A stretch of 32,000 nucleotides of DNA from NCBI GenBank assembly GCA_022646745.1, contig CP060262.1, forward strand, positions 510,001-542,000. Direction: 5' to 3'. Source of the DNA: Planctomycetales bacterium. Lineage in GTDB: Bacteria; 4484-113; JAFGCY01. Of the stretch, positions 1,869 through 32,000 are shown piece after piece (position 1 is the first letter of the stretch; every line of letters begins with the position of its first letter). The notes under the pieces were generated by a model. It ran no database searches, had not been told where the DNA came from, and saw only the letters and a list, made by a program, of their open reading frames with translations. Position numbers and translations under genes: made by a program.

Positions 1869-1992
1869 TCCTTGATTCTATCCAAGGAGCAAGGTCAAAT
1901 TTGCATCCACGCCGGACACTGCCAGCCGATTTTCCCGCATAATAGGAGTCAGGCCGGGCCCATTGCCGGCTGAGATAATGGATGTCAGCGCG

Positions 1993-2001: not shown

Positions 2002-2023
2002 ACCGGCGCGGAGGATCACGACA

Positions 2024-2635
2024 ATGGCATATGTACCGGTAGTAATTGAGCAGTCCAACTTCGGCGAGCGCGCCTATGACATCTACAGCCGCCTGCTGAA
2101 GGACCGCATCATCTTCATCGGGGCACCGATCGGCGACCAGCTGGCCAATGCCGTGATCGCTCAGCTGCTCTTCCTGGAGAAGGAGGACAGCACTAAGGAC
2201 ATCGACATCTACATCAACAGCCCGGGCGGCAGCGTGATTGACGGCCTGGCGATCTACGACACGATGCAGCTGATCAAGCCGAACGTGTCCACCATCTGCG
2301 TCGGCCTGGCTGCCTCAATGGGTGCGGTACTGCTGGCCGGCGGGGCCAAGGGCAAGCGCTACAGCCTGCCCAACAGCAAGGTGATGATCCACCAGCCCTG
2401 GGGCGGTTTCCAGGGGCAGGCCTCCGACATCGCGATCCACGCCAGGCAGATGCAGGACACCAAGCGCCGCCTTAACGAGATCCTCGCCAAGCACAGCGGC
2501 CAGGACATCAGCAAGGTTGAGCAGGACACCGACCGCGACCACTTCATGAGCCCGCAGGAAGCCAAGGACTATGGCCTGATTGACATGATTATTGAGTCGG
2601 ATGGCGCCAGTTCTTCACCTTCCGATAAGGCATAA
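2024..2635 (+). CDS. clpP: ATP-dependent Clp protease proteolytic subunit ClpP
   Basis: [33 protein letters not shown]...INSPGGSV...[11 protein letters not shown]...VMIHQPWGG...DRDHFM. ClpP family blocks with the Ser (GLAASMG), His (MIHQP) and Asp (DRD) triad contexts. Start refined from track start 1982 to ATG 2024, which has GGAGGA 8 nt upstream. Confidence 0.95.
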
Positions 2636-5270: not shown

Positions 5271-5291
5271 GTTATCTGAATGAGGTCGTTC

Positions 5292-6623
5292 TTAACCCTT
5301 GCCGGGAACGACGTCGGTCTCCTTGTCCTTCTGCGGAGGCTCGTACTTCGTCGGCGGGTTGTTGTTGGCCGGGGTCTCAGGCACGTTCGGCGGAGCCGGA
5401 CGGCTGAAGTCCCAGTCCACCAGCTCACGCTGGCTGCAGTTGCCATCGCAGGTCGGCAGGCCGCAGGGGCAGCAGCTCATGTCCATCGGCAGGTTGCTGG
5501 CGGGCCAGACGTTACCCCAGGCAGTCGGATCCATGCTGGCGAGGATGTTGCGCTTGAGGCGGGCATCCACCTTGGCATGGGCGTACCATGTCGGGTCGGA
5601 GAGCACCAGCGAGATGTCGAAGGCCTCACCGTAGTGGCACATCTCACGCAGGAAGTTGATCTCGCAGTCATTGAAACGCCAGGCAAACTTCCAGCGGTAG
5701 GCGCGGGCCACGTGATCGTAGGTGATGTCCTCGATCACGACCTTGCGCGGGTAGTAGACGTAGTTCTCGTTGAGGTCGAGGCTGAAGCCGTGGTACTTGT
5801 AGTCCTGGCAGTAGAGGGCCTCGTCGCCCTTGCCTACCTTCTTCTCACGGCAGACGTTGCACTCCTTCTCCTTGCAGGTGGCAGTGCACTTGGCGCAACC
5901 ACCATCGCAGTTCTCGTCACCGCAGGCGCGGTAGTGCAGCTCGGGACCACAGACGAACTTGCCACGGCGCTGGTAGTTGTAGAGGAACTCGTGCACGTTG
6001 TTGTCCACGATGCTCTGCGCCTTGGGCAGGCCGAACTCAAGGTAGAACTTGTCCTTGAAGTTGGCCAGGTAACGCTCGAAGTAGCGGTTCGGGCCGAGGT
6101 CAGTGATGTCGTGCTTGTCCTCGTCCACGGAGAACCACACCCAGCTGATGGCCTCGCCGCTCTGCGGGGTGACCTCAGCGTAGTAGTCGATCATCTGCTG
6201 CACCACGTCCGGATCGCAGACGTAGTAAGCATCGATCAGGGTCTGGATGTGATCGCGCACCATGTCACGCGTGAAGAAGAACGCGCTGACGGTGTACTTG
6301 TTGCAATCGTCATGCCAGACAACCCTGCTGTTATCGGGATAGGTCATGCGCTCCCAGTTGAACTCCTTCTGCACACGTCCGGGGACGGGCAGGCGGAAGT
6401 CCTCCAGCGTCAGCGGGCTGAAACCAACCTCATCGACGCCGCGGTGGTGGAACGCATGGAACTGGGGGTCGATAGCAATGTCCTCAGTCTTGCTGTCAAG
6501 ACTGCGGTACATCGGCCCCTCGTAGAGCGGAAGGCCAGTGACCTCGCTCTTTGCGCCGTCGGACGCGAAAGCCGTGCCCAACGCCAGAATAGTCATCATC
6601 AACCCTGTAACTAGAAAGCGCAT
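5292..6623 (-). CDS. Secreted cysteine-rich protein (18 Cys), hypothetical
   Basis: Signal peptide MRFLVTGLMMTILALGTAFA|SDG. SD GAGG lies 7 nt upstream of ATG 6623. Cys cluster CGDENCDGGCAKCTATCKEKECNVC (nt 5850-5924) and second cluster CCPCGLPTCDGNC (nt 5436-5474). Pro-rich C-terminal tail. The + ORF 5280..6614 is its mirror-frame artefact. Confidence 0.85.
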   Translation of the reverse strand: MRFLVTGLMMTILALGTAFASDGAKSEVTGLPLYEGPMYRSLDSKTEDIAIDPQFHAFHHRGVDEVGFSPLTLEDFRLPVPGRVQKEFNWERMTYPDNSRVVWHDDCNKYTVSAFFFTRDMVRDHIQTLIDAYYVCDPDVVQQMIDYYAEVTPQSGEAISWVWFSVDEDKHDITDLGPNRYFERYLANFKDKFYLEFGLPKAQSIVDNNVHEFLYNYQRRGKFVCGPELHYRACGDENCDGGCAKCTATCKEKECNVCREKKVGKGDEALYCQDYKYHGFSLDLNENYVYYPRKVVIEDITYDHVARAYRWKFAWRFNDCEINFLREMCHYGEAFDISLVLSDPTWYAHAKVDARLKRNILASMDPTAWGNVWPASNLPMDMSCCPCGLPTCDGNCSQRELVDWDFSRPAPPNVPETPANNNPPTKYEPPQKDKETDVVPGKG

Positions 6624-6957: not shown

Positions 6958-8733
6958 CTAGGGGTAGCGTTGTTCCCGGATGATGATGCTTGCCGGGTAG
7001 AAGCCACCGTTGAGCGGAATGGCGCGGATGCGAAGGAGCTTGGTCTCCCCCGGCCGGAGCGGAATGTCCTTCAGCAACTGCTCCTCGCCCGAGGCCACCA
7101 GTGAAGTGCCGACATATTCATCATCTATGAAGAACTGCCCCTTGACCTCGCCCGCGCTGGCCCGCAGCACGACAAACACCAGGGCCGGATAGTTGTGCAG
7201 GTTCTTCAGCTCGACGTTGTAGCTGTGTGTCATGCCATAGCAGCCCTGCAGCACAGAGCTGTCACTGAGGCTCGCGGGCAGCTGACTGCCGAGGCGCATG
7301 TAAAGCCAGTTGTCCCCGGTGTTGTACTTGATGTCCGCGTTAACGAAGGGCTCGCCGAAGACGCAGTAGCTGGCCTCCCCCTTGCTCTCCAGCGCCCAGG
7401 GCGGGACCGGGCTGCCGTGGTTCACGCTCATCACCTCAAGCCGCAGCTCTCCGCCACCCAGGCTTGAGAGGGTCATGTAGCCACTGGCGGTCATGCCATG
7501 CCGCATCCGCTGGTTCACGATGAAGGCCTGGCCACCGGCCGGGATCTCCAGCACATAGCCATTGCCGGCATTCAGGTTCGTCCAGTAGTTCTCGGCGGAA
7601 CGGTAACCAACATAAAAGGTATTCACATCCGGCTCAGCCAGCCCGGGAATCACGTGCACGCTGGCTGCACTGCCGCCGGTATTGAGCAGACGGCAGACGA
7701 GGTCGAGGTCTGAGCCGCTCTGGTTCTGGTGATGGAACACCAGCCGGCCGGCCTGCTGGCCATTGAGCTTCGAGAAGTACAGCAGCTGGGCGCGGCTGAC
7801 ACGCTCCGGGCGGTTGGAGAACCAGGTGAGGTTCTCGCGCGGCAGGTGCAGGCGGCGGTTCTCCACGGTCAGCTGCTCACTGCCCTTGGATCCACCACCG
7901 CCTCCGGGCTGGCTGGAAATCCAGTCCAGCTTGAGCTGCTTCTCGCGACCAGGGGCCACGCGCAGGCCGTCAGTGTTCCAGAGGATGCGACTGTCGGGCG
8001 TCAACTGGTGCCGGTTGCGGATCAGGTTGTCAATGCCTTCGCGGATCACGGGCAGGGCGGCGCTGTCACCAGTGACCACCACACGGTCCGCTGCTCCCTG
8101 GTGGCCACTTGCCACACTGCCTGGCGCTGGCGGATCGAACACGCGATGTCCACCGGACTTTATCAGCCCGGCATTGTCGCTGGCACCCTCTGCGCGGCTG
8201 CCCTGCGGCCGTGCGGCAATTCCCCCACCTGCCGGCCCTTCCGTGGCGGGCATCACGGGGGTGCTGTTGGATTGGCTGGATTGCCCTGACTGCGGCTGCA
8301 CGGCTGGCGCGCTGACTCCCAGTGCGAGGTTGATGTTGTTCATCCAGCTCAGGCAGAGCTCTTCCGGATCCGCTCCCCAGGCCTTGCCTTCCATGTCGGT
8401 TGCCAGCAGCAGCAGCTCGCCATCCAGCATCAGTTTCCACTGGCGCTCAGCCGACTCGTCCTCCTCGATATTGAGCGAGGTTCGACCATGGCGGTATGCC
8501 GAACTCAACTGCACGCTGGCCAGGGACAGGTTGCGCAGCGGGGTGCGGTTGCGCTGGTTCTTGGTCAGGCGCACCACGGTCTCGCCATTTACGACGAGAG
8601 CAATGGCGGGCTTACCATTGGGGGTGGCGGAGGGACGAGTCTCGATGCGGATGCTGTCCTGGGCCGCCAGCGGTGCACTGAGCAGGGCGCAGAGCGCGGG
8701 CAGCAACAGCATGGACAAAAGGACTCGGGGCAT
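6958..8733 (-). CDS. Secreted protein, 591 aa, hypothetical (N-terminal domain, Gly/Ser/Gln/Pro linker, large C-terminal beta-rich region)
   Basis: Signal peptide MPRVLLSMLLLPALCALLSAPLAA|QD. Low-complexity linker around QPQSGQSSQSNSTPVMPATEGPAGGG. No family recognised by eye. Same strand as paralog A and immediately downstream of it. Confidence 0.85.
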   Translation of the reverse strand: MPRVLLSMLLLPALCALLSAPLAAQDSIRIETRPSATPNGKPAIALVVNGETVVRLTKNQRNRTPLRNLSLASVQLSSAYRHGRTSLNIEEDESAERQWKLMLDGELLLLATDMEGKAWGADPEELCLSWMNNINLALGVSAPAVQPQSGQSSQSNSTPVMPATEGPAGGGIAARPQGSRAEGASDNAGLIKSGGHRVFDPPAPGSVASGHQGAADRVVVTGDSAALPVIREGIDNLIRNRHQLTPDSRILWNTDGLRVAPGREKQLKLDWISSQPGGGGGSKGSEQLTVENRRLHLPRENLTWFSNRPERVSRAQLLYFSKLNGQQAGRLVFHHQNQSGSDLDLVCRLLNTGGSAASVHVIPGLAEPDVNTFYVGYRSAENYWTNLNAGNGYVLEIPAGGQAFIVNQRMRHGMTASGYMTLSSLGGGELRLEVMSVNHGSPVPPWALESKGEASYCVFGEPFVNADIKYNTGDNWLYMRLGSQLPASLSDSSVLQGCYGMTHSYNVELKNLHNYPALVFVVLRASAGEVKGQFFIDDEYVGTSLVASGEEQLLKDIPLRPGETKLLRIRAIPLNGGFYPASIIIREQRYP

Positions 8734-12170: not shown

Positions 12171-15100
12171 CTACAGCGTGCTGAGCACCTTCACTTCATC
12201 CGTCGCCAGGTCGCGATAGAACAGGTGCCAGCGTCCATCCGGCCCGGTGGCCAGCTGGCCCTGGGAGTAGTGGCGGCCGGCCGGCAGGGAGAGAGTCTCC
12301 CAGTCACCGAAGTTGCTCCACTCCAGCAGGTGTTCCGGCCCACTGTTGTCAGATACGAAGGCCACGCTGCACAGCCCGTTGCTGCTCATCGAGCTGACCG
12401 TGCGCCGCAGCTCGCCGGCCTGGAAAAGCGGGTTGCTGAATGGCAGGGTCTCCCAGCTGAGGTTGCCGAACAGGGAATAGCTCACGCGAATCGGGGTGAT
12501 TTCCGGGCCATAGGCCACATGCCAGCAAGGGACGGGAATCGCAAAGGGCTGGGAGACCATGATCGAACCGTCGATCACACGGCTGGCCACGAAATAGTCT
12601 TCGGCAAATGCCATGACCGGATCGCAGACATATTCGATCTCCGGATTACCCTGCTTGATGACACCTAGCTTTGAGTCCTTGATGCCGGTTCCGCCAAATG
12701 CCACCAGGCTGACGGCATCACTTGAATGGATCACCGGCTGGCCGTCCCAGACCGGCAGTCCATCCAGCTGGATGTCGGACTGAGGGTCGCCGGACATCTT
12801 TGTGCGCATGTAGGGTGGCACATTCGTGCGGTCGTCAACGGAGAAGTAGTACGACAGCTCACCTGACAGCAGCGGGCGTACGTCATTCGATGAATCAAGC
12901 GTATGCTCGGCCACGAAGGCATTGCCATCCCAGCGGACCAGCTGCGCGAACCCGGGGGTGTAATAACCCATGAACATGTTGCCAAGTATGTCACTGCAGA
13001 GACGCGGGAAAGAACCGTTGGGAACCACGGGGTCCTCGGTCCAGTTGACGGCATCGCTGCTGTGGAAGTGGTAGATCTTGCCCGCCCGCACCTGCACCAT
13101 GTGCAGCTCATTCGTGGATGAGGAAGCCATCATGTGCAGGCCGTTTCCAACCACGCCGGGCACCACATCCACTTCGCTTTCGCTGTCCGTCGAGGTGATG
13201 TCATCGATCCGCAGATCCCAGCTCGCCAGGTTCATGAAACGGCGGAAGCGGCTATCACCGGGGATGCGCAGCAGTTCCTGCGGCCCGTAGCACTGCGGGA
13301 AGTCAGCCGTGTTGACGACCGTCCAGAGGCCCGCATCATTGCGGTACAGCCTCGCTACACCATTCGTACTGTCCACCAGCTGGGCATACTGCGTGCCATC
13401 CACGCAGAGCAGGTCGCCACCGCCGAACTGCTGGTTGACAGCGTCCACGGTCTGCGGGGCGGACCAGCTGAGCAGGTCCTCGTTGAGCGCGCTGTAGAAG
13501 TGCTGCGTCCCCTGGAACATCAAAACGCAGGGCCGGCCGGTGGCCGGGTCCTGCTCAATGTTCACGGTATTGGTCGCTGCCGCACTGATGACCGCCGTGT
13601 CCATCGAGCCATCCGCATGGCGGCGGATCCAGCTCGCATTGTTGCCTCCATAGATTATGTCCAGCGAATCGCTGACGGGGTCATACTGCATGTCAACGTA
13701 GCCCAGCGTGGGCAGCCCGGCCATGATTACCTGGCTTCCGCCGGGCTGCAGGTCCGTCAGCATCAGGCTGTAATCCAGGCCGTTATTGAACATGTAGGCG
13801 TAGTAGATCTCGTCTGCGGCGTTCGCCGCAATGGCGAAGCGATCCGTGTTCGAGAGGGTATAGGCGTAGTCAAGGTAACCCAGTTTGCTGCCATCCCAGT
13901 AGAAGGCTGTTTCTCGGGTGGGCTGGTACACGCTGAACAGCCAGCCCTGGCTCGTGCGAGCCGGTTCGCTCAGCAGGCCGTTGCCCGTTCCCAGCAGCGG
14001 CAGGTAGTCCCAGCTGCTGCTGCCATCGAGGTGCTGGGTGAGGGCGGTGATGCCGGGCTGCATGATGTCGTAGAACACGAGCGTGCTGCTGCCATCCGGA
14101 TTGTCCACTGCCTTCATGGAGGCCGCGCGCGGGATCGCGTTCGGGCCGCTGACAACGGTGGTGGGATCTGCCTGCCACTGCGGGTAGACCTTCAGGTAGG
14201 CATCCGTCGTGCCGGTCTTGCCATTGCTGAGGCCGGCAATCGTGATGTAGTAGCAACCAGGCTGCAGGGTCACAGTATTCACCGGATCCGGCGAGACAAG
14301 GTATGGCGTGTTGGCCCCGAAGGATATGGAATAGGCCGTGATATCCGTTCCATCAGGGTCATAGCTGTCGCTGAGGTCAATCGTTATCTGGGCCGGCCCA
14401 TGCAGTGGCCCCGTCGGCATTTTCGCAATCATCACAGGCGGTGCATCAAAGGCGGCATCGGCGAACAGGTTCTTGCTCTGCCCGTAGCTTACGTTGCCGG
14501 CTGTGTCCCAGCTGCCGATGCGGTAACGCATGATCTGTCCCGGCGGAATGTCCAGGTCGGTGAAGTGGTTGTCGCGCAGCAGCACAGGGTTCAGCGGCAG
14601 CCAGGCTCCACCTGACTGGGGCTGGCGCTCGATGCTGTACCCGAGGAAGTCCGCGTCATTGAATGACCCGCTGTGCTGCCAGCTGAACATGATGTTGGTT
14701 GCCGAGCTGCCGTCAAAGATCTGGCCGACCGGCAGTGGCCCGTCGCTGCCACCATAGGCCCCGACTTCCATTGCATCCAGGTGCAGGCTGCCACCGGGAG
14801 GCACGACCAGCGCGATGTAGTGCAGTCCCAGTGGGGACGTATATCGCTTTGGGCTGGCAAATGGATCTTCCGGGTCGTACTGCTGCTCTGTGTCGCCATT
14901 GAAGGGACCGAACATCTTCCAGCGGCCGCTGAAGAAATCGGAACAAGCCAGGTAGTACTCCCCGCTGACCGAACTGACCAGGCAGTTGAGTCCGGTCGGG
15001 GCCGAATCGCCCGGCCAGGGTCCGACCGCCCAGATCTTCCAGGCAGCCTGCACGCCCGCATCAAACTGCCAGCCGCCGCCATCCATCACGGCCTGGCTCG

Positions 15101-15496: not shown

Positions 15497-18400
15497 TCAG
15501 GGGGTACTGACAACCATGATGTCGTCCGTGAGGAGGTCGTGGTAGACGATGTGCCAGCGACCATCCTCCCCGACCATCAGTTCCGGCTTGCTCATGAAGC
15601 GGATGCCCGGCAGTGACAATGCCTGCCAGTCGCCGAAGTTACTCCATTCGAAGTACTGGCGGTCGCCCACGCTGTCGGAGACCAGGCCGACCGCGGTGTA
15701 GCCACGGGCCTGGGCCGCACTGGCAGTTCTTTCAAGGAAAGCAGGCTCATAGAACGGGCCGGATTCCATCCGGAAACTGAGGCTTTCCGCGGTCCCATTG
15801 CCCATGTAGTCAAAATCAACCCGCCTGGCATTGCCAAGCCCATCATAGGCCTGCCAGAAGACTGGCCTGAGTGAGCTCCGGCTGTAGTCAAAGAATGCTG
15901 CACCATCAGCCCAGCGCCCCTCAGTCACCATGTTCCGCTCAACTACAAACCCGGCAGAGACCGAATCCGGTGCTTCGTCGGCTTCATAATCAACCAGGCC
16001 GAAGTATGCTTCGTTGGGCTTGTCGCCACTGTAGTAGCCCAGCACCACCGGCTCATCACCCGGCATCATCACTGCGGCACCTGTCCACAGGGTGCCATGG
16101 CTCCAGGGAACATCGTTGGCATTCAGTCCAGTGACTGCGTAGAGCTGGTCCACGCCGGGCTTGTCATAGAGCAGGATCCGCACGCCCTGTTCCGACACCA
16201 CGGGAATGGTATCCGGCTCTATCGGCAGGAAGCCGGTCTGTGAGAAGCCGGCACCCTCTGTCCAGAAGTTGTAGTTGACCTCGTCATTCTCCACCTGTGC
16301 CAGCATCAGGCTGCCAGCCTCATCCGCGCCGAGCTGCAGGGCATCCGCGTCTCCGAGGTCCGGCATCTCATTCCAGCTGGAGCCGTCATCGCTGCGATAG
16401 TGCCGGAGCTTGCCCTGTACGACCTGGGCCACATGCAGTCCGTCATAGCCTGCAGCCGCGCTCAGGAATCGTCCCTGTGAATCCTGCCCCGGTTCAGCGA
16501 GCAGGGATTCGAACGGTCCACTGCCAGTGCGGCGGTAGGCATGCTTCATGCCATCGGAGGCAAGGTCGAGGATGCCGAGGCTGCCCAGCTCATTGTTGGC
16601 AATCAGTGCATTATTGGAGGCGTTGGCATGCGGCAGCTCACCGATGCTGTCGAAGCCGCCACTGCCGCCGCTGTACATGTGGAGGGTGTCCGCCACGCTG
16701 TCCAGCATGCTGACAACGGCTCCACCATCGAGGAACTCCAGTTCGTGCTGGGAACCGGCGGAGAGTGAACTGTCCACTGAAACCGGAATGGTCCAGTCGG
16801 TATCGCCCTCCATCAGTTCCCTGTACAGGATCTCAACGCCGTCCTTGTAGCAGAGCGCGGGACGGCCGTTGGCGGGATTCAGCGCAATGTCCTGGTGCAG
16901 CACCCAGCTGTCATTCAGCTCCGCCCCGCCAGTGATCATGTTGTCCTTCACACGGGCCCAGTTGAGCTTGTCAGTGGAAAAGATGCAGTCCACACTGTCG
17001 CTAGCCGGGTTGTAGAGGCAGGACAGCACTCGTCCGACGGCAATGTCGTTGACAAGGTTGATGCTGAGGCCGGAGAACAGTTCATGCAGGGTGATGGCAT
17101 GGTTGGTCGCGCCCTCCGTGTAATGCAGCAGCCAGAGCCTGCCCTGGCCATCAGAAGCCAGAGAGCTGTAACTGGAGTCGGTCTCCACAGCCAGGTAGTC
17201 AGTGTATTCCAGCGAGTCGCCATCCCATTCAAGCAGGTGCACGTAGCCACCGAACACTACCGGTGCCACAGGACGGCCATTGTGGATCACGAGGTTGCCA
17301 AGCAGGCCGTAGACCGTTCCGTAGACCGGCAGGAAATCACGCAGGATGCTGCCATCCGGACGGATGCAGATCGCACCGATGCCCGGTACAGTAGTTTCGG
17401 CATAGATGTACAGCTCGCTGCCGTCCGCCGGATCCACGATCCCGCGCGCGTCATAGGAATAGGTCCCGTCGTCTGCACCACTGTCTATCACCACCGGGTC
17501 AAGCCACTGGGGGTGGACACGCAGGTAGCCAAGGGCATAACCGTATTCACCGCCGGCGGCGATCCTGCCGAGCACGCGGTAGCAGCCCGGCTGCACTGTC
17601 AGTTCCAGCACCGCACTGGCGGAATCTATCTTTTCTCCGTCATCTCCGACCTGGAACTGGTAACCGGCGATGATGTCATCGTCGGGGTCGTAGCTGCCGC
17701 TCATGTCGAAGCGGACCGTGGTCGGGCCGTAGAGCGACTGCTGGCTGATTTCCAGCACACCTACGGGAGGCGATCCACCACTGCGGTAGCCGAACTCCCG
17801 CACCGGGCTGTAGGCCATATTGCCTGAGGTATCCACGCTGGCAACGCGGTAGCGGCGGTCGATGCCCTCCACCGCCTCGGTATCCACCCAGGATGTTGCC
17901 TTAACAGGTTGGTCCGTCAGTCTGGAAAATGAAGAACTGCCGATCGGCGCGAACTCCACGAGGTAGCCGGCGAAGTCAGCTTCAATGTGGCTGCGGCTGT
18001 TCGTCCAGGAGAATGCCACCTGGCTGGAGTTGCTGTGGTCGTAGAGATCGTCAACGCGTAATGGGGCGTCATCACCGCCATCGACACCGAGTTCCAGCGC
18101 AAGCAATTCGACCGCGCTGCCCGGCGGGGCTACCATCACGGCGAAATGCCTGTCGAACGTGGACACGCGGGAATCCGGGTCACCATCGTACTCCAGCGTG
18201 GCATCTCCATCCTGCAGTTCACTGAACTGCCAGTGGCCGGATGCGTAGTCAACCCAGCCAAGCACATACGGACCGCTGCCCTCCGTCACGTCGGCGCGCA
18301 GGGAGGTCGGCCGCATGTCATCGGTGAAGCCATCCACCGGCCAGATCCGCCAGGCGCTGTCCGCCTCGTCGAAGAACAGTCCCTCGGCGCCTTCGCTGAC

Positions 18401-18689: not shown

Positions 18690-21600
18690 TCAGCTCACAG
18701 TGGAGATGATGCGGATGTCGTCGTTCCAGTAGTCGTAGTAGATGATGTGCCAGCGGCCGTCCGGTCCGACCACGAGTTCGTGGCGCGAGGAGTGCCCTTC
18801 CAACCCGGCGGGCAGGGGCAGTGCTTCGAAGTCACCGAAGTTGTCCCACTCAAAGAAGAACACATGTCCTTCCAGGCTGCTGCCGATGCCGACGGCGGAA
18901 TCCCCCCAGGCGGTCGTCGCACTGACCGTGCGGCGGTGATTGGTCGGATCAATCTCCGGGGATACCACCGCGAAGCTGTCATATGTCCACTCCTCCTGGT
19001 CATTGCGGTAGACCCGGACCAGTCCCGCATCAGGACCGTAGGTGGTGTAGAACACCTCGCGGGAACTGTGGTACTGGTTACGGTAGAACGCCCCTTCGTA
19101 GTGGCGTCCGAGTGTCCAGGGGTCGTCGAAGAATTCGAAGGATGGTTCAAACAGGTACTGCAGGTTTCCTGACAGATCGAGGATGCCGACATTGCCGCTG
19201 TTGAAATTGAATCCGTCATAGCGGACCAGCATGCGTGCGGCATTCGTGTTCTCGCCGGCCATCGCCCCTTCCCAGATGTCAGTCGTGTCCGGGTTGAAGA
19301 TGATCACGGGGTCGAGATCTCGCTTGAAGTGGAACTCATCCGGCACTGCATCACCATCAAAGTTGCCGAATACGAGCGCATTGCCCTGGCCGTAGATCAG
19401 GGGCTGTGAATTGTTGCTGATCGGGTTGTCCTCCACGTCGATCCAGGCCGGGTCGACCCAGTGGCGCAGGTAGACATTGCCGCCGTTGATCAGTGAGGCA
19501 TAGACCTCGCCATTCTGGTCAGTCACGATGTGGCCACCGGTGCCCAGTCCGGCGTCAGTGGTCTCGGTCCAGGCCACCCCGTCGGGGCTGGTGAGGTGCA
19601 GGTAGTTCGACAGCGGCTTGTGCAGCAGGTGCAGGCCGGCCGGACTTGATGTGGCACTCATCTCCCTGCCAACGCCGGAATAGCCATCGATGTATGCGAG
19701 CTCGGTTTCCGTGCCGTCCTCCTGCATCTGCGTGATGCGGGTGCCGAAGTCCAGACCGATGTCCAGCACCTGGAAGCCGGGCACATCCGGGATGTAGCTC
19801 AGGGCGCAGAAGAACCCGCCGTCAGCATAGTCGGCATCGTTGATCACGTCCCAGTTAGCGCCGTTCCTGCGGTACAGGCTGGATCCTCCCGGGTTGTCAC
19901 CGAAGAAGCAGTAGGCGGTGCCGTTACGGTAGACGAGCTTGGCCTGGATCCAGTCGGGGTCGAGCGGGTCGACCTTCTCCGGGGCGGTCCAGGTGGCATC
20001 GTCGTCATTCAGCTCGCTGTAGAGGATAGACACACCGTCGGACAGCAGCAGTGCCGGCCGGCCGGTGGCGGGATCCACCTCGATGTCAACGAAGTTGCTG
20101 TCGCTGGCATTGATGCTGAAGTTTCCCATCGGACCGATCACGGGTGACCAGCGCAGCCACTCGGTGCTGCCGCTGCCTGAATAGATGAGGTCTATCGCCT
20201 CGGCATCCGGGTTCCAGGCGGCATCGAGGAAATTGCCATTCAGCAGCCCTGGCACCAGCACGATGCTCTGCAGAGTGTTGAAGTCGACGATCTTGATGTC
20301 GTAGCCGACATTGATCTGCTGGTAGATGCCCCAGCGCCCGTTCCCGCCGTCAGTGACAACGGCGGTGAACGCGGTATCCGTGCTGGCCCCGAATCCGATG
20401 TAGGGGGTGACCTGGTTGTCCTGCCAGGTGCAGGAAATCACCTGGTCCGCATTGGCCAGCATGAAGATCCACTTGTCCCCGACCATCTTCGGCTCACTGC
20501 ACAACAGCTGGCCATCCTCAAAGATGTGCACCCAGTCATTGCGATCCACGTTGCCATCGGCATCAACCGTCAGGCTGACTACCGAGGGCACTGCGGCATC
20601 CGACATCAGGAACACTGACTTTTCGGACACCGGGTCATAGAATGCGCGCGGGGCGAAGTTGCGGTAGACAAGCACGGTGCCCTCATCAACCAGCTGGCTG
20701 CTGTCCTCCCAGGCCGGATAGACCTTCAGCATCATGTGCTTGGTGTCAGACTGCCCGCCGGCGGTCACGCGGCAGCGCAGGGAATAACAGCCGGGCTGCA
20801 GGGTTTCCGTGAATTCCGGGACCAGCTGCGAGACCTCCCCCAGCCCGAGGCCGAAGTCCACGAAGTACTCAGTGAAGGCATCGCCATCGTTGTCAAATGA
20901 ACGTGACAGGTCAATCGTCACCTTCGCCGGGCCGGTCAGAGGCCCGTTTGGCATGTCGACGACGCAGACCGGCTCCGAGGTTCCTCCTGCAATGCGCTGC
21001 GCGGGGTAGCTGAAGGATGGCGCGGTGTTCCCGGCAGTGTCCCAAACGGTCACGCGATAGACCCAGGTCGTGTTGAGCGGCGCATCCTCGTCATTGTAGA
21101 AGTTGTCAAAGATGTGTTCCGGGGTCAGCAGGACATAGTCACTGATCGGGAAGGTGGTGCGTTCCACCGTGTAGCCGGCGAAGTCCGGGTCGAGGTAGCT
21201 TTCGCTGTGGTCCCAGCTGATCGTGATGCGGTCCTCGTTGCTCTTGTTGCGGAAGTCGTTCAGGGGCTTTGGTCCGTTGCTGCCGCCATGCACGCCGACC
21301 TGCAGCATGTCCAGCTGCAGGGAACTGCCATCCGGCACGATCATAGCCACGAAGTGGTTGTGGTACTTAGAGTTGAGGATGTCCGCCCCGGTCAGCTCGC
21401 TGACCTCCGGGTACTCATATGTCGTGCTTTCCGAGAACGGCCCGGCCACCTGCCAGCGACCGTCGATGTAGTTCGTGTGCGCGAGGTAGTACTCACCGTT
21501 GACGCCGCTCACGTCCGTCCGCAGGCTGGTGGCAAAGGCATCACCATCAAAGCCGTGGACGCCCCAGACGCAGTAGGCCGCCTGGCCGCTGCCTTCGAGA

Positions 21601-22057: not shown

Positions 22058-25000
22058 CTACTCAACCGTGCTGATGATCCGCAGGTCGTCGTTGACGAAA
22101 TCGCGGTAGATGATGTGCCAGCGGCCGTCCGGTCCGACCACAAGTTCGTGCAGGCTGCCGTTGTCCATACCGGACGGTACAGGCAGCTCCTCCCAGTTGC
22201 CGAAGTCTGACCACTCGAAGAAGCCGACATCGCCCATCACTCCCGATCCGATGCCGACTGCCGTGTTGCCCCATGCGGTCATGGCGCTGACACAGTTGCG
22301 GCTCTCGTACAGCAGCTCAGGCTGGAAGATGATGCCGTACTCATGGACATCCCATTCGCCAAACAGGTTTCGATCCATGCGGGCATAGGTGTTGTTCGGT
22401 CCGTAGGAGAAGTAAAACACCTCCCTTGTGCTTGCGAAGGCATTGCGGAAGTTGGCACCTTCATAGCTACGACCAAACGTCCATTCGTCGTCAAACCTGT
22501 TGAAGCCGGGCTCGAAGATCTTGTCAATCACACCGGTGGAAGTGCTGAGGATCCCCACGTCCGCATCCGTGATGTCAGAGGCCCCGAACAGGACCATGAT
22601 CCTGTAGTTTGAGCCGTTGGAACCGGCGAACGCGCCGCCCAGGACGTCATTGTCGTTGGGGAACGTGGTCTGGGTGGGCGTGAGGTTGACCTTGTAGTTG
22701 AATTCCGCCGGAACCGCCAGATTGTCAAAGTTGCCAAACAACATCACGCCACCCTGGCCATAGACCAACGGGGCCGTGTTGGGGCTGATTGAATGATTGT
22801 CCTCCGGCACCCAGGCCGGGTCGACCCAGTGGTTCAGTTTGGATACACCGAGGTTGGCAATCCCCGTGTAGATCTCGCCGTTCTCGTCCACCACGATCTT
22901 GCCGCCGAAGCCCACACCGGCATCTGAGGTTTCAGTCCAGGTGTCGCCGTCCGGGCTGGTCCAGTGGATGTAGTTGAACAAGGGCTTGTGGATCAGGTGG
23001 ATCTCCGAGTTGGAGCTTATCGCGCTCAGTTCCAGTCCGTTCCTGTCCCAGCCCTTGCTGATGTACAGCTGCTGCTCGCTGTCGTCCTCCTGCATCTGGG
23101 TGATGCGGGTGGCATAGTCTGACGCGGTGTCCATCACCATGAAGCCCGGCAGGTCCGGGTTGTAGGCCATGCTGATGAAGTACCCTCCGCCGGGATAGTC
23201 GGCGGTGTTGATAACATCCCAGTTGGCGCCGTTGCGGCGGTAGAGCTTGGCGTCTCCGGGGTTGTCGCCGACAAAGCAGTAGGAGTTGCCATTGCGGTAC
23301 AGCAGCTTGGTGTACGGCCAGTCGGGATCGATCGGATCCACGGGCAAGGGTGCGGTCCAGGTTGCATCATCCGGGTTGAGGTCGGCGAAGCGGACATTCG
23401 GGCCATCCGAGAACAGTGCCGTCGGCCGGCCCGTGGCGGGATCCTGCTCGACGTCTATGAATTCGCTGTCGGCACCGCTGAGCACGAAGTTGCCGATCGG
23501 ACCGATCACAGGTGACCAGCGCAACCATTCCGTCTTGGTGTTTCCGCTGTAGAGCAGGTCAATCGCCTCGGCATCCTCGTTCCACTCTGCGTCTATCTCA
23601 CCTGCAGACACCAGTCCGGTGACCAGCAGCGTGCTGCCCGGGTTGTTGATGCTCAGGATCTTGATCTCATAGGGGGCGATACCGTCGTAGTACAGGATCC
23701 AGGCAGTTCCGTTGCCATCTGTGACCATGCATGCAAAGCCTGCATCAACACCAAGGTTGGCAAGGAAGTTGGTGTCAATCACGTTATCCTGCCAGCCGCA
23801 GACGATCAGGTTGTCTGAATCGGCAATCGTGAACAGCCACTGCCCGTCCACGAACACGGGTTCACAGATGGCCACGACTGGGCCGTCAAGGATCTGTGGT
23901 GAGTCATGGCGATCCACGTTGCCATCCTTGTCCACCGTCATGCTGACAAGCGAGGGCGTGGCTGCATCGGCGAAGAGGAAAACCACCTTCTCAGACGCCT
24001 CGTCGTAGAATGACCGCGGCAGCCAGTAGCGAGGCGCAAGCGGCGTGCCTTCGGTGACAAGCTGGCTTGACTCCTCCCACTGCGGATAGATCTTGAGCAT
24101 GCGCAGCGTGCTTCCTGTGAACCCTCCGGCCTTAGCGGCGAAGCTGATCATGTAGCAGCCGGGCTGCAGGGTGGTTGTCAGCACCGGGTCGGGCTGGCTG
24201 ACCTCACCGAGGCCGGAACCGAAGTCGAAGTAGTAGTCGGTGATGACGTCGCCGTCATTGTCATACGAACCTGACAGGTCGAATGTCACCTCAACCGGCC
24301 CGTACAGTGGCCCCTTCGGCATATCCACCACGCAGGTCGGCAGGGCCATGTCCCCCACGTTGCGGATTGCGACAATCGTCATTGACACCGCATTGTTCCC
24401 GGCGGTGTCCCAGCAGCGCACACGGTACATGAATGGCTCATTGACGCCCGGTTCCGGATCCTCGAACACGGAATCAAATGTATTTTCCTCACTGATGGTG
24501 ACAAACTCACCGATCGGGAAGGGAGCACGCTCAACCGAATAGCCTGCGAAGTCCGGTTCATTGAAGCTCGGGCTGTGCAACCACTGGATTGAGATGATTG
24601 ACTCATTGCTGTTTTCAGCAATCGCCACCACGGGGAACGGACCTTCGTTACCACCATCGACGCCGAGCTGCAGCATGTTGAGCCTGAGGCTGCTGCCATC
24701 CGGGACCAGGATCGCCACATAGTGATTGTGGCGGGCGGAGGCGAGGATTTCCGGATCGGAATACTGGCTGACCTCGGGGTACTCATAGGTCACGCTGTCC
24801 GTGAACGGACCGGCGGTCATCCAGCGGCCGTCGATGTAGTTGGTGTACATCATGTAGTACTCGCCGACAACATCGATCACATCGCTGCGCAGGCTCGTCG
24901 GGTAGCAGTCCCCATCGAAGCCGTGCACGCCGAACACGCTGTAGCCGTTGCCGCCGGCTCCGGCAATGTCAATCGCCGGCAGGTCATCAGTGACACCCTG

Positions 25001-25240
25001 CTCATTGCCGCCGAAGTTGCGATACTGCAGGTTTATCGAGTACCAGCCGGGTCCGGCGACGCTCAGGTCACGCCCTGTATCAATCTGCAGTGCTGCAGGG
25101 TCCGGCAGGGTGGCTTCAATGCCTGCTGCCTGATCCGTTCCCGCCGGAGTATCAATCGACTGCGGCACGGAGGAGCCCCCACATGCAGCAAGCATGAGCA
25201 TGCCGGCCAGCAGCACGCAAAGCAACAGGTTCTGCTTCAT
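22058..25240 (-). CDS. Paralog E: large lipoprotein of the same family (D/E/F subfamily)
   Basis: Start refined to ATG 25240 (TCAAGGTGGATCTA-ATG), giving MKQNLLLCVLLAGMLMLAAC. Full set of family motifs. Asp-box TSPDGDTW. C-terminus FFEWSDFGNWEELPVP...GPDGRWHIIYRDFVNDDLRIISTVE. 1,060 aa, the same length as F. Confidence 0.9.
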   Translation of the reverse strand: MKQNLLLCVLLAGMLMLAACGGSSVPQSIDTPAGTDQAAGIEATLPDPAALQIDTGRDLSVAGPGWYSINLQYRNFGGNEQGVTDDLPAIDIAGAGGNGYSVFGVHGFDGDCYPTSLRSDVIDVVGEYYMMYTNYIDGRWMTAGPFTDSVTYEYPEVSQYSDPEILASARHNHYVAILVPDGSSLRLNMLQLGVDGGNEGPFPVVAIAENSNESIISIQWLHSPSFNEPDFAGYSVERAPFPIGEFVTISEENTFDSVFEDPEPGVNEPFMYRVRCWDTAGNNAVSMTIVAIRNVGDMALPTCVVDMPKGPLYGPVEVTFDLSGSYDNDGDVITDYYFDFGSGLGEVSQPDPVLTTTLQPGCYMISFAAKAGGFTGSTLRMLKIYPQWEESSQLVTEGTPLAPRYWLPRSFYDEASEKVVFLFADAATPSLVSMTVDKDGNVDRHDSPQILDGPVVAICEPVFVDGQWLFTIADSDNLIVCGWQDNVIDTNFLANLGVDAGFACMVTDGNGTAWILYYDGIAPYEIKILSINNPGSTLLVTGLVSAGEIDAEWNEDAEAIDLLYSGNTKTEWLRWSPVIGPIGNFVLSGADSEFIDVEQDPATGRPTALFSDGPNVRFADLNPDDATWTAPLPVDPIDPDWPYTKLLYRNGNSYCFVGDNPGDAKLYRRNGANWDVINTADYPGGGYFISMAYNPDLPGFMVMDTASDYATRITQMQEDDSEQQLYISKGWDRNGLELSAISSNSEIHLIHKPLFNYIHWTSPDGDTWTETSDAGVGFGGKIVVDENGEIYTGIANLGVSKLNHWVDPAWVPEDNHSISPNTAPLVYGQGGVMLFGNFDNLAVPAEFNYKVNLTPTQTTFPNDNDVLGGAFAGSNGSNYRIMVLFGASDITDADVGILSTSTGVIDKIFEPGFNRFDDEWTFGRSYEGANFRNAFASTREVFYFSYGPNNTYARMDRNLFGEWDVHEYGIIFQPELLYESRNCVSAMTAWGNTAVGIGSGVMGDVGFFEWSDFGNWEELPVPSGMDNGSLHELVVGPDGRWHIIYRDFVNDDLRIISTVE

Positions 25241-25375
25241 TAGATCCACCTTGATACTAAGTGGAGGCTGCGCCAGTGCGCGAACCTATGGACATACCTT
25301 GCGTGCAGTCCCAGTCCATTCCCTGCGCTGCTGCACTTGCCTTGACTAGCCGAAACCGGCCCAAAACCAGCTCGA

Positions 25376-25410: not shown

Positions 25411-28400
25411 CTATTCCACTGTGCTGATGATGCGCAGGTCATCGTTTACATAGTCGCGGTAGATGATGTGCCAGCGACCGTCGGGGCCGATAACCAGCTC
25501 ATGCAGTGAATCATCGTGCATGCCCTGCGGCAGGGGCAGCTGCTCCCAGTCACCGAAGTTGGACCACTCGAAGAACTCAATGCCCTTCAGCATGCGCGCT
25601 CCGATGGCAACGGATGTGCCACCCCAGGCAGTCGTGGCACTGAGGCTGCGCTTGTTCAGGGCAACCTCGATTTCGCTGGTCGGGAAACCGAAGTTGTCCA
25701 CATCCCACTCGCTGAATGGGTTGCGCAGGATGCGAGCGAAGCCCGCATTCGGTCCGTAGGCAATGTAGAACACCTCTCGCGGGCCAGTGAATCGGTTGTA
25801 ATAGACGGCACCTTCTATGTGCCTTCCGCGCGTCCAGTCATCGTCATAGGCTGCAAAGCTGGGGTCACAGATGTAATCAAGTTCACCGACCTTGTTCATC
25901 ACACCGAGATCACAGTTGTTGGGGTCCGGCGATCCATACAGCACCAGCAGTTTTGCGTTGGCCACATCGATACCGGCAAATGCACCATCGGCGATCTCCG
26001 TGGTCGGTGTATTGAACACAACGGGCACCGCCAGGTTCTCCTTCCAGTGGAATTCATCCGGCACCATGTTGCCATCAAATGTGCCAAACATCAGGGCATT
26101 GTTCTGGCCATAGATGATCGGCACCGTATCTGCGCTGATCGGAGTGTTCTCCACGACAATCCAGGCCGGGTCAACCCAGTGGCGCAGGAAGGCGGTTGCT
26201 CCGTCCTTGAGGCTGGAGTAGATCTCGCCGTTCACGTTGGCAACAATCTTGCCGCCTTCACCGATGCCCGCATCCGATGTCTCGGTCCAGGTGTCGCCGT
26301 CCGGGCTGGTCCAGTGGATGTAGCGGTCAACCGGCTTGTGCATCAGGTGAATTTCCGTGCTTGAGCTGGCTGCGCTGAGTTCCAGCCCGTAGCGGGACCA
26401 GCCGTCACTGGCCCACAGTTCCTGTTCGTCACCGTTCTCCTGCATCAGGGTCAGGCGGGTCCTGTAGTCCAGCGCGGAGTCCAGCACGTAGAATCCGGGC
26501 ACGGTGGGATTGAATGCCATGCTGTTGTAGTAGCCGCCGTCAGCGAAGTCGGCGTCATTAATCACGTCCCAGTTGGCACCATTCCTGCGATATAGCGTGG
26601 AACCACCAGGGTTCTGCCCCAGGTAGCAGTAAGCGTTGCCATCTCGATACAGCAGCTTGGAAAATGTCCAGTCCGGGTCAATCGGATCGACCGGCAGCGG
26701 GGCAGTCCAGGTCATGTTGTCAGGATTCAGTTCGCTGAAACGGATGTTCGGTCCATCAGTGATCAGCGCGGTCGGGCGGCCCGTATCCGGATTATTCTCC
26801 ACATCAACAAAGCCGCTGTCGGCAGCGCTGATGCTGAAACTGCCCATCGGGCCGATCACCGGCGACCAGCGCATCCACTCCGTGCTGCCGTTGCCACTGT
26901 AGACAAGGTCGATGGCTTCCTCTGCCTCATTCCACTCGGCATCGAAGAAGGTTCCCGCCAGCGCATTCGGTACAAGTGTGACTTCTGAAAGTGTATCCAG
27001 GTTGATGATCTTCAGGTCGTAACCGACATTGATCTCCTGGTAAAGCAGCCACACGCTGCCCTGGCCATCAGTCACCATGCTGGTATAGGCCGTGTCCGTG
27101 TTGTTGGTGACAAGGTAGTTGGGGACGATTTCGTTGTCATGCCAGGAGCAGATCATGAATCCGAAGCCATAGGCTGCACCGAACTGCCATGTTCCGTCCA
27201 CATAGACCGGTTCACTCATCAGAACCAGCGGCTCAGGGAACAGGTGCGGGACATCCTTGCGGTCCACGTTTCCGTCCTTGTCAACGGTGATGCTGACCAG
27301 GGAAGGTGTTGACACATCTGAGAACAGGAACACGACCTTCTCTGAATCCGGGTCATAGAACGAACGGGACAGTGAATAGCGCAAGAAAATCGGGGTTCCG
27401 TCGTCAATCAGCTGGCTGTCGGTTTCCCATTCGGGATAGACCTTCAGCATGCGGATGCGTGAATCGGTGTCTCCTCCGATCTTGACGGTGAAGCGCATAA
27501 GGTAGCAACCGGGCTGCAGGGTAACAGTCAGCACAGGGTTAGCCTGGTTGACCTCGCCGAGACCCGGTCCGAAGTTGAAGTAGTAGTCATTGATCGGATC
27601 ACCATCGTTGTCAAACGAGCCCGACATGTCGAAAGTGACCTCAACCGGACCGACCAGCGGCCCCCGCGGCATGTCCACCACACAGACCAGTCCGTCGGAG
27701 ATACCCATGGCCCGCCAGGCGGGGATTGCCATGGAGAGTGCGCTGTTGCCTGATGTATCCCAGGTCCGCACACGGTACATGTAAGTCTTGCCATCTTCGG
27801 CTGAAATATCGTTGTAGTGCGATTCGAAGGTGTTCTCAGTACTGATCGTGCTGAACTCACCAACCGGAAAGTCGGAACGCTCGACCGAGTATCCGGCGAA
27901 GTCAGGGTCGTTGTAGTCCGGGCTGTGGTACCAGACGATTGTGACAACGTCCTCATTGCTCTTGTGGCTCACTGCGAGCACGGGGAATGGTCCCTCGCTG
28001 CCGCCATCCACGCCCAGCTGCAGCATGTCCAGCTGCAGGCTGCTGCCATCCGGCACGAGGATGGCGACGAAGTGGTTCGTATACTTCGAAGCGAGGATCT
28101 CCGGACCGGAGTATTCGGAAACTTCCGGGTACTCATAGGTCACGCTTTCGCTGAAGGGACCCGCTGTCATCCAGCGGCCGTCAACATAATTCGTGTGCAG
28201 CAGGTAATACTCGCCGACGACATCGCTTACATCTGCACGGATGCCCGTGGGATAGCTGTCGCCGTCAAAGCCCTGTGCCCCGAAGATGCAGTAGCCGCTG
28301 CTGCCACTACCGGCGATGTCAATTGCCGGCAGGTCCTCGCTGACTCCCTGCTCCGCCCCACCGAAGTTGCGGTACTGCAGATCGAATGTGTACCAGCCCG

Positions 28401-29026: not shown

Positions 29027-32000
29027 CTAGGCTGCGCCGGGCACGGTGCTGCGGATCATCAGGTCATCCGTCTGCGTGTCCCGGTAGATGATGTGCCAGC
29101 GGCCAAACTGGTCCGCCACCACTTCGTACAGGTGGCCATGCTCGATGTCGGGGAACTCCAGCGGCAGGAAGCCTGACTGGGTGCTCATCTCGAACAGTTC
29201 CACTTCTCCCTGCAGGGTCGAGATCAGGGCAACACCACTGAACATCGGGGTGTTGTCAGCACTGACGATGCGACGTGTCTCACCCTGGTTGCGATCAGTC
29301 AGTCCAACGGGGATTGTCTCAGCATGGAAGCTTGTGCCGGATCGTGTGATCCTCAGCGGGTGGCCATCAGTTCCGGAAGCGGCATAGAAGATGCCACCAC
29401 TGGACGGCATGCCCGGGTAGTAGCCATAGGCTGAGTCGATGGTGCGGCCAATGATGAGCGGATCGGCGTAGGGCATGTTGCCCCATTCGGCGATGAAGTG
29501 CACATCATTGCGAAGCCGGTTGAGGAAGCCGATGGAACCGTTATATCCTGCGGTGCCGCCGTAGATCACCACTCCATCGAAGTTCGTACTGGAGTAGCCA
29601 TCGATCGCACCGTCACGGATCGGCCCGTTGACGTAGGTCTTGTTGAAGGTGTTGCCATCAATCTGGTAGACAACGCCACCATTGCCAAGCTGGTCAGACT
29701 GGTTGAGCATGAACAGGCTGTCGTTGCTGCCACCGACGATCGGCTGTGAGCCATCATTGGCAACCCATGCATTGAGGTCGATGAAGGCACCGCCGCTCCA
29801 CTGCTTCTGCAGGAAGGCGGCGTTGTGCCGGTAGGTCAGGTACGGGCCGCCCTGCTTGTCAGTGCTGAGGCGGATGCCGGTCGGCTCGTTGCCGATCCCG
29901 TCCTCGTAGAGGCTCCATGAATCGCCATAGACGCTGCCGTAGACTGCCATGCCAAGGCCCTGGCGGGTTGCAAGGTAGATGCCGTCCTCGTTGTCCTCGA
30001 CCGTCAGTCCAAGCCCGAGGAAGTCCGTGCCCTCAATCAGGGCCAGTTCCTGCTGCCCGAGCTGGTCACCAAGACGTGAGACGTGCATGCTGTATGCAGT
30101 GCGGTCCATGATGATGGTCTGGCCGTCACCGGGAAGGCGCAGGGCACTGACCTCATAGCCGCCGTCGGTCCAGCCGACCTCCTGGCCGGCGGTCCAGCCG
30201 TTGCCGGTGTCGTAGTAGATCCGCGATTTGTTGCCAGGTGCCCCGGCGAAGATGTAGCTTCCTTCCGCATCGATCACAAGGTCAACGGCAGTGGTCAGCT
30301 GTCCGTTCGGGCCGGTCTGGTTGAAACCGCTCCAGACCAGTGACAGTGCATCACGGTTCGCGTGGAATATGCCGAGGATGTAGCCGATCGCGAGTTCCAT
30401 GCGCTGTGTGTACTCGTTGTACTCAAGATCCAGGGACTCCACGTCCGCGGTGAGGATGTCAACCTTTGTTGATGCACCACCGTCCGGATCCACAACCGCC
30501 CACATGAGCTGGCCATTGTGCGTGTAGACAAGCTCGTACATGCCGCTTTGCGGATTGTATTCAGCATCAAGCAGTCCGGGGTTGATGACAGCTTCATGGA
30601 TCGTGGAGTAATTGAAGCCACCGGCCTGGTAGCCGATGATGTCGTTTCCAAATCCCTGCTGCTGGAATGACCAGAGGTTCCCGTTGCCATCGGTGGCGAG
30701 GTCGGACTGCACATCCCCATTGCTGCCGCTGGAGAAGTAGGTGGCCATCCGGAAACCGTTCGCATCCAGCTCGAGTCCGGTCCGCTGGTTGCCCCAGCGG
30801 GCCTGCAGCAGCAGCTTGCCGTTGAATTCCACCGGCTCACTGATGAAGCGGTACTCACTCGTATCGTTGACAACGGTCTGCCCGTAGAACGGCCAGCTGC
30901 CGAATTCATCCAGGCCCTGCTCCGTCACGTGGCTCGCGATCAGCGCACTGCGCATGCCGTCAAAGTAGAGGGCCACGGGCTCACCCGTCTGCGGGTCGCT
31001 TGCCAGTCGCGGCGTGAAGGCCCGGCGACGCAGGTGGTTGCTCTCAAGGAGCACCCGTGACTCTTCCTCCCAGGTCGGCAGGATCGTCATCGGGAACCAG
31101 CTGTAGGAAGTCTTGTTGTTGCTTACACGGACATCAACCCGGTAGCCGCCGGTCGGCAGCTCGATGCTGAATCGCGGGTCATCCTGGCTGATCTTGATGT
31201 AGTTGGTGCCAACGCTGACCTCATACTGCTCGATCGGGTCTCCGTCGGGGTCATAGGAGCCTGACAGGTCAATCTGCACCGTCGCGGGAAAGGTCAGCGG
31301 GCCGGGGGTATGGCTGACCACGACCACGGGGGGGTTGTCAGCATTCGGGTTCGTGTAGTCCACCACGACGGAACCGGGAGTCTGGCGTCCGGCCGTGTCA
31401 CAGGCGTACACGATGTAGCGGTAGAACTGTCCATCCTCGGCGGTGTCGTCTACGTACTGATTCTCGAGGAATGGCTCACTGTTGAGGAACACGTAGTTGT
31501 CACCGATGTAGTCGGAACGGGCAACGCGGTAGCCTGCGAAGTCCAGGTCCGCATAGCTCGGGCTCTGCCACCAGCTGAGGAAGATGTCCTTGCCGCTGTA
31601 GTCCGGCGACATCGTGACCGGAAAGGGAGCGTCACCGTCATCTCCGGCAATCCTGAATGAACAGGCCTCCACCGTCAGGCTGCCCTCCGGCAGGATCACG
31701 GCGAAGTAGTGCTTGCCAGCCGCGGAAACCCCGGCAAGGGACTCGGGGTAGATGACCTCCTGGCCACCGATGAAGGGACCGAATGTGGTCCAGCGGCCGC
31801 TGCCGAAGTCACTGGCAGCGATGTAGTATTCAGTTGCATCATCCTGCATGTCGAGCTGCACTGCGTCAACGTAGAGGCCAGCCTTGATCTCACTGACGCC
31901 CCAGGCGAACCAGGCGGGACCGTCAGCGGCCTCCAGCAGCAGGCCATCGTTGCCGGGCGTGGCGGAGCTGGAAATGTCCACCAGTCCCATGCCGGTGACC
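29027..32000 (-). CDS. Paralog G: most divergent family member; the N-terminus (signal peptide) lies beyond the right edge
   Basis: The frame stays open through position 32000 (..VTG before the track Met at 31990). Compared with A-F, about 60-90 N-terminal residues are missing. Motifs: DFGSGRWTTFGPF, DFAGYRVARS...FYRYIVYACDTAGR, GPLTFPATVQIDLSGSYDPDGDPIEQY, ILPTWEEE, and C-terminus LFEMS...FGRWHIIYRDTQTDDLMIRSTVPGAA. Confidence 0.85.
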   Translation of the reverse strand, partial: VTGMGLVDISSSATPGNDGLLLEAADGPAWFAWGVSEIKAGLYVDAVQLDMQDDATEYYIAASDFGSGRWTTFGPFIGGQEVIYPESLAGVSAAGKHYFAVILPEGSLTVEACSFRIAGDDGDAPFPVTMSPDYSGKDIFLSWWQSPSYADLDFAGYRVARSDYIGDNYVFLNSEPFLENQYVDDTAEDGQFYRYIVYACDTAGRQTPGSVVVDYTNPNADNPPVVVVSHTPGPLTFPATVQIDLSGSYDPDGDPIEQYEVSVGTNYIKISQDDPRFSIELPTGGYRVDVRVSNNKTSYSWFPMTILPTWEEESRVLLESNHLRRRAFTPRLASDPQTGEPVALYFDGMRSALIASHVTEQGLDEFGSWPFYGQTVVNDTSEYRFISEPVEFNGKLLLQARWGNQRTGLELDANGFRMATYFSSGSNGDVQSDLATDGNGNLWSFQQQGFGNDIIGYQAGGFNYSTIHEAVINPGLLDAEYNPQSGMYELVYTHNGQLMWAVVDPDGGASTKVDILTADVESLDLEYNEYTQRMELAIGYILGIFHANRDALSLVWSGFNQTGPNGQLTTAVDLVIDAEGSYIFAGAPGNKSRIYYDTGNGWTAGQEVGWTDGGYEVSALRLPGDGQTIIMDRTAYSMHVSRLGDQLGQQELALIEGTDFLGLGLTVEDNEDGIYLATRQGLGMAVYGSVYGDSWSLYEDGIGNEPTGIRLSTDKQGGPYLTYRHNAAFLQKQWSGGAFIDLNAWVANDGSQPIVGGSNDSLFMLNQSDQLGNGGVVYQIDGNTFNKTYVNGPIRDGAIDGYSSTNFDGVVIYGGTAGYNGSIGFLNRLRNDVHFIAEWGNMPYADPLIIGRTIDSAYGYYPGMPSSGGIFYAASGTDGHPLRITRSGTSFHAETIPVGLTDRNQGETRRIVSADNTPMFSGVALISTLQGEVELFEMSTQSGFLPLEFPDIEHGHLYEVVADQFGRWHIIYRDTQTDDLMIRSTVPGAA

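Follow-up and report, generated by a model that had tools for sequence, protein, structure and literature searches.

Propellers of the Asp-box (BNR/sialidase-type) class are closed by 1+3 clamping in essentially all cases (PMC2716378), and in the double propeller of Utp4 it is the protein's N-terminal strand that completes blade 14, a blade that is conserved, functionally important and itself a partner-binding site (PMC5456268). Here we set against these systems a 32,000-nucleotide stretch of DNA from a Planctomycetales bacterium (contig CP060262.1, positions 510001-542000 of a 4.11-Mb single-contig genome; this whole stretch is "the window" below), the minus strand of which carries seven tandem genes, A to G, of ~990-1120 codons each. 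Our subject is the signature in which the products of these genes end. In paralog E it is formed by the 55 C-terminal residues, which the translation of window positions 22061-22225 (minus strand) gives as GFFEWSDFGNWEELPVP...GPDGRWHIIYRDFVNDDLRIISTVE, followed by the stop codon. We consider it very probable that the signature is the ring-closing final blade of a double propeller, held by a 1+3 velcro, and as such an ordinary structural feature, out of the ordinary only in that its conservation far exceeds that of the other blades.

An earlier description of this DNA, made without database searches (the sequence-only reading), had reported that every paralog ends in the signature, and all seven of the minus-strand open reading frames (ORFs) A-G do share the C-terminal block. 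Its count of 44 shared positions out of 54 between E and F was reproduced when we recounted the alignment (10 differences in 54 positions). The residues it listed as invariant, the E of FEW/FEM, G-R-W, the D and the T, are present in all seven copies, but the list omitted the L and P of LP.P, which are invariant in the seven as well. The P, G, W and D are still invariant over the 13 paralogs of the genome.

The model that carries our interpretation is an AlphaFold2 prediction of E built on a 25-sequence alignment, with a mean predicted local distance difference test score (pLDDT) of 86.4 and a predicted template modelling score (pTM) of 0.81. The protein begins with the lipobox cysteine, Cys23, and a disordered linker, followed by a beta-sandwich N-module (residues 67-198), an FN3 domain (199-296), a PKD domain (297-384) and an all-beta region (396-1063). 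Profile matches of the family to PDB domains identify the FN3 domain as titin-type and the PKD domain as ColH-type. After the PKD domain the model has 55 strands, which were assigned as 13 complete four-stranded blades, a three-stranded last blade and a spare strand, 396-399. Blade 14 has no fourth strand of its own in the model, the chain stopping right past its third strand, and strand 396-399, which follows P389-x-W391, is the only strand that is not used by other blades. DSSP strands in the signature lie at residues 1008-1015, 1018-1021, 1031-1038, 1044-1050 and 1055-1061 (pLDDT about 89-94). As modelled, the signature is strands C and D of blade 13 (FEWS.., WE.LPLP) together with strands A to C of blade 14 (HELVVG, RWHIIYRD, DLRIIST), so that the structure prediction proposed as a check by the sequence-only reading has the segment complete propeller 2 and form no separate unit.

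Based on this strand count, we propose that the chain would end at the third strand of blade 14 and that the outer strand of this blade would be supplied by the strand following the P-x-W motif at the PKD-propeller junction, where P389 and W391 are invariant in the family alignment. A 1+3 closure of this kind would lock propeller 2 and would tie it to the N-terminal stalk composed of the N-module, FN3 and PKD. In the model, strand 396-399 is probably the one that supplies the fourth strand of blade 14, and we infer that it pairs directly with residues 1055-1061.

To this we can add an in-silico deletion, in which E without residues 1029-1063 was predicted from the same alignment rows as the full-length protein. 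In the predicted model of the truncated protein the bridge at W391 and strand 396-399 were lost, and no part of the protein changed more than residues 391-400, the pLDDT of which went down from 92 to 78. Part of the outer strand of blade 8, which we infer to lie next to blade 14 in the ring, was lost too. Among the other 10-residue blocks, shifts of more than 3 units were confined to 741-750 (93 to 88), 911-920 (89 to 80) and the newly formed C-terminus. As far as predicted models allow, these effects match what 1+3 closure predicts. Of the two explanations put forward in the sequence-only reading, the closing blade or molecular velcro is thus the one borne out by the final strands of the model, the strand count, the deletion and the blade-repeat homology described below; what has to be amended is the partner, which appears to be the strand preceding blade 1 and not blade 1 itself.

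The likeness of E to the Asp-box propellers consists of the modelled 1+3 closure and of one Asp-box. There is a single Asp-box (S-x-D-x-G-x-T-W) per protein, which in E reads TSPDGDTW (residues ~764-771) and, based on the sequence and the strands of the model, comes after the third and before the fourth of the strands assigned to blade 8. E departs from the Asp-box propellers in that its closing strand precedes the whole first propeller, so that the closure would span two propellers, with partners ~630 residues apart. Utp4, Elp2 and Gemin5 share with E the arrangement of 7+7 blades, and residues 391-1063 of E align structurally to the double propellers of Elp2 and Gemin5 over ~600 residues (Z 23-26). 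However, these are WD40 proteins of eukaryotes, 7-8% identical to E and not detectably related to it in sequence, whereas the family of E is one of bacterial lipoproteins that combine an Asp-box-type repeat with FN3 and PKD domains at the N-terminus. The structurally closest relatives of residues 409-733, in propeller 1, are the sugar-binding lectins of Photorhabdus (PLL/PHL) and Burkholderia (BP39L), with Z ~28. For the seven-bladed PLL/PHL lectins the alignment gave Z 28.6 and a root-mean-square deviation of 2.7 over 306 residues. Together, these structural matches support two propellers of seven blades each. No structure matched propeller 1 better than these lectins, but the match does not concern the part with the signature, and at 7-10% sequence identity the likeness is one of fold. 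By analogy with these lectins, the variable blades of E may bind glycans.

The homology of the signature was explored with a 59-position profile, which had 673 matches at E-values up to 1e-3 among 1.84 billion representative proteins. The classes and architectures described here rest on the best 150 of these matches together with homologues found earlier, and there may be rarer architectures among the rest. Ninety-eight proteins matched the whole profile, each of them once and at 0-5 residues from the C-terminus, and those that are full length have 1006-1132 residues. All but one of the shorter whole-profile matches are collinear with the end of the family profile, and we therefore regard them as truncated gene calls; the exception, of 846 residues, aligns over the whole family profile and is a shorter family member. 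A second class comprises 63 tandem-repeat proteins, in which the matches fall in 3-13 stretches spaced 47-52 residues apart and cover profile positions ~14-56 only. Several of these proteins match Pfam BNR_4, some have an N-terminal Big_5 domain, and their E-values in the library go down to 1e-20.

When a profile was made from 190 of these foreign repeats, it scored 49.9 bits on residues 1018-1057 of E, and no other blade of E reached 7 bits. Unlike E, in which only the last unit has the motif and blades 1-12 stay below 7 bits, the BNR_4-like (PF15892) repeat proteins carry it in every blade, and they share with E the end register ...DLKYAE. In thirteen of the foreign propeller proteins the chain ends at most about six residues from the counterpart strand, ...DLKYA, which indicates that the closing register is common to both groups. 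From the sequences, the 41-residue core of the signature is a near-canonical copy of the ~50-residue blade repeat and the sole repeat unit of E that is still near the ancestral consensus. Blades 1-12 would then have diverged beyond recognition from an ancestral repeat that the core has barely left. When profiles of either half of the signature were run on the family proteins, none of the other blades was detected (all <4 bits), so that sequence gives no link between these blades and the signature. No relative of P0065, a canonical repeat protein, was found in the PDB by sequence, and the family profile matched only FN3 and PKD domains there. In Pfam and NCBIfam searches the paralogs gave sub-threshold PKD matches only and no C-terminal domain; BNR was matched by none of the seven, even at E-values up to 1, and the gathering score of BNR_4 was not reached.

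Four points weigh against the interpretation of the signature as a ring-closing blade. The model of E rests on 25 sequences only. The pairing of strand 396-399 is deduced from the strand count, the alignment ranges and a deletion in a predicted model, and is not observed. The foreign-repeat profile was gathered with the signature profile as its seed, which brings some bias towards the signature. Lastly, it is not obvious how closure alone would have blade 13 and all of blade 14 conserved to a far higher degree than the rest. Ring closure does explain the position of the signature, its register and part of its conservation, and our preferred reading is that the strong conservation would be due to closure in combination with a role of the meeting point of stalk and propeller as a structural hub.

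The extent of this conservation was determined in an alignment of 74 family members, comprising the 13 genomic paralogs and proteins from public genomes and metagenomes. Here none of the 1009 windows of that length scores higher than the last 55 residues, which have 2.57 bits compared with 2.42 for the next and lie 7.3 standard deviations above the other propeller windows. Among the seven copies of the window the mean pairwise identity in the last 55 columns is 0.49, a tie with the PKD core (0.50), and the rest of the C-terminal 650 residues reaches at most 0.35. The per-column check suggested by the sequence-only reading thus upheld its statement that the tail is the best conserved part of the family in the wider alignment, but not among the seven copies. 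Per blade, blades 1-12 have 1.24-1.74 bits, blade 13 has 2.39, blade 14 has 2.49 and the junction has 2.27, so that blades 13-14 and the junction exceed any of blades 1-12 by about 0.7-1.2 bits per position. A tail no better conserved than the other blades, which the sequence-only reading had named among the points telling against it, is therefore not what we found, and this difference between blades 13-14 and blades 1-12 leaves room for a role beyond ring closure. Since blade 13 is as conserved as blade 14, the block extends upstream of the start first reported for it: it begins near residue 984 (RRTVSA.TAWG.TAVG), about 25 residues earlier, and takes in both blades whole. The N-terminal modules are similarly conserved, and the protein thus has a constant frame and a variable centre. 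The family offers a clean natural case of blades that diverged unevenly in one propeller, modestly interesting to the study of how propellers evolve and when construct boundaries are chosen.

A DNA-level cause of the conserved tail, gene conversion homogenising the 3' ends of neighbouring paralogs, is to our minds scarcely credible. It would fit a 45-nucleotide patch in D and E that is identical at 44 of 45 positions, and the fraction of identical residues encoded by the same codon, which is slightly higher in the tail (59%) than in the rest of the propeller (49%). Yet ~41% of the codons for conserved residues differ, which points to selection on the protein and not to homogenisation of the DNA, and nucleotide identity in the tail is just 0.49-0.77 between paralogs. 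Moreover, the tail is best conserved across all 74 members, including those of other genomes, where conversion cannot act. Gene conversion was rejected as the cause on these two grounds, codon-level divergence and conservation across genomes, and we regard it as largely refuted. The patch itself encodes HELVVGPDGRWHIIY (window 18738-18782 in D, 22106-22150 in E) and has 12 identical codons in a row; it may be a short gene-conversion tract, although E and F have an equally long run (alignment columns 854-865) and it is hence not clearly exceptional.

The other explanation offered by the sequence-only reading, a recognition tag for sorting or anchoring, did not hold up, as the complete signature occurs on one architecture only and matches no sorting-domain model. 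In its general form, a portable tag at the C-terminus that dedicated machinery would read for sorting, anchoring or secretion, we judge this explanation to be very improbable. The strictly C-terminal location of the signature, seen in all 98 of the whole-profile matches examined, is what such a tag would lead one to expect, as is the fact that its carriers are predicted exported lipoproteins. However, no other architecture was found to carry it in the genome, the relatives or the library matches examined, all of which are family members or fragments. In the genome, where the sequence-only reading had proposed that search, all 13 copies belong to collinear paralogs. No NCBIfam or Pfam sorting domain was matched by the last 100 residues or by the whole protein. 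PEP-CTERM, LPXTG, the C-terminal domain (CTD) of the type IX secretion system (T9SS) and their relatives have in common with the signature only a C-terminal position on exported proteins. Unlike these, the signature has no hydrophobic helix or basic tail (as had been noted earlier, and there is no hydrophobic run either), does not form a domain of its own, is matched by no model and was found on no other architecture. In the model it is instead integral to a confidently folded blade, and the proteins already bear an N-terminal lipobox for anchoring. The motif also lies at varying distances from the carboxy-terminus, and this speaks against a recognition that takes the chain end as its anchor. 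That a PDZ-type domain or a tail-specific protease might recognise the ...STV end was considered as well, and was rejected because this distance ranges over 0-5 residues and the copies do not agree in their final residues. If the conserved tail is, as we believe, a structural clasp and not a new sorting signal, there is no cognate sorting machinery to seek.

The excess of conservation in blades 13-14 and the junction, together with the similarly conserved N-terminal modules that make up a constant frame round a variable centre, could also mean that this region is in addition a conserved binding surface for a shared protein or ligand moiety, with blades 1-12 being paralog-specific. The velcro-closed blade 14 of Utp4 does bind partners (PMC5456268). 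We nevertheless think this unlikely, as no partner candidate emerged and the conserved residues fit the consensus of the ancestral structural repeat, pointing to a structural cause. A conserved neighbour was considered as the partner, namely the secreted 591-residue protein encoded next to paralog A, and was rejected because it is single-copy and absent from the fetched loci, including those of other genomes. A related and equally doubtful proposal is a receptor-like design, in which the constant frame (N-module, FN3, PKD, junction and blades 13-14) would dock to a shared partner or to surface-display machinery, and blades 1-12 may have diversified between the paralogs, of which a genome has up to 13, to recognise different ligands. 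Were this so, the signature would be an interaction module as well as a clasp.

Returning to the signature as a closing blade, we examined how widely the family that bears it is distributed. A search of all six-frame ORFs of the genome with the signature profile identified 13 copies, of which seven are in the window, an eighth is directly upstream in the same array and five are elsewhere (Table 1). All 13 are located at the very end of open frames of 1050-1140 residues, and all of these frames start with a signal peptide and lipobox (L-A-[AG]-C), based on which we consider the paralogs to be lipoproteins, predicted to be exported. The family is thus one of large, uncharacterised lipoproteins, the architecture of which is now defined and which no Pfam or NCBIfam model covers as such. 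Among the 22 representative genomes of the phylum, a small candidate phylum, seven have the signature, with 1-13 matches each, nearly all in frames of 1040-1230 residues, and these seven belong to a single family-level lineage. A genome of the same genus also has 13 copies, the other genomes of this lineage have 0-6 and those of other lineages none. Related loci were obtained also from uncultured metagenome-assembled genomes labelled "bacterium" or "Planctomycetales bacterium".

Table 1. Positions of the signature copies, of the family members and of the parts of gene E (window numbering unless otherwise stated).
Feature	Position	Strand	Basis or remark
Signature, paralog E, residues 1009-1063	22061-22225	-	Blade 13, strands C-D; blade 14, strands A-C (predicted)
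Signature, paralog A, last 55 codons	8826-8990	-	Alignment
Signature, paralog B	12174-12338	-	Alignment
Signature, paralog C	15500-15664	-	Alignment
Signature, paralog D	18693-18857	-	Alignment
Signature, paralog F	25414-25578	-	Alignment
Signature, paralog G (most divergent copy; 4-residue tail past STV)	29030-29206	-	Alignment
Gene E, whole (1063-residue lipoprotein)	22058-25249	-	ORF translation, AlphaFold2 model, profile matches
Propeller 1, blades 1-7, residues 404-735 (variable in the family)	23045-24040	-	Structural alignment of residues 409-733
Propeller 2, blades 8-14, residues 736-1063	22061-23044	-	Strand count; double-propeller structural alignment
Blade 13, residues 981-1027	22169-22309	-	2.39 bits; 8 positions at least 85%
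Blade 14, residues 1028-1063 (predicted closing blade of propeller 2, three own strands)	22061-22168	-	Strand count; 2.49 bits
PKD-propeller junction, residues 385-403 (P389, W391, spare strand 396-399)	24041-24097	-	Alignment, model
Paralog array	8823-31999; genome 542432-545608 (L001:432-3569)		Array of eight
Dispersed paralogs	L002:2304-5528; L003:2941-9541; L004:2616-5837; L005:2742-6158		Five copies, two in tandem

Elsewhere in the genome, two proteins of ~950 residues (plus strand, 1589989-1592859, L006:1990-4860; and 1597291-1600122, L006:9292-12123) have PKD domains followed by tandem blade repeats of ~50 residues, which give weak matches to the signature's second half. Further weakly matching multi-repeat ORFs are situated near 3.49-3.50 Mb, 0.21 Mb and 1.04 Mb.

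The remainder of the window was surveyed as well. Adjoining paralog A on its downstream side is the gene for the 591-residue protein mentioned above (6958-8733, minus strand), which has a signal peptide. It had no Pfam or NCBIfam match, and none of the loci that were fetched, among them those flanking family members of other genomes, contained a copy of it. At 5280-6623 there are two nearly coextensive ORFs of 444 and 443 residues on opposite strands, neither of which has a Pfam match. The other flanking genes are ordinary, and encode a PD40-repeat protein (954-1868, minus strand), ClpP (1982-2635, plus strand) and the quinolinate synthase NadA (3402-4451, minus strand).

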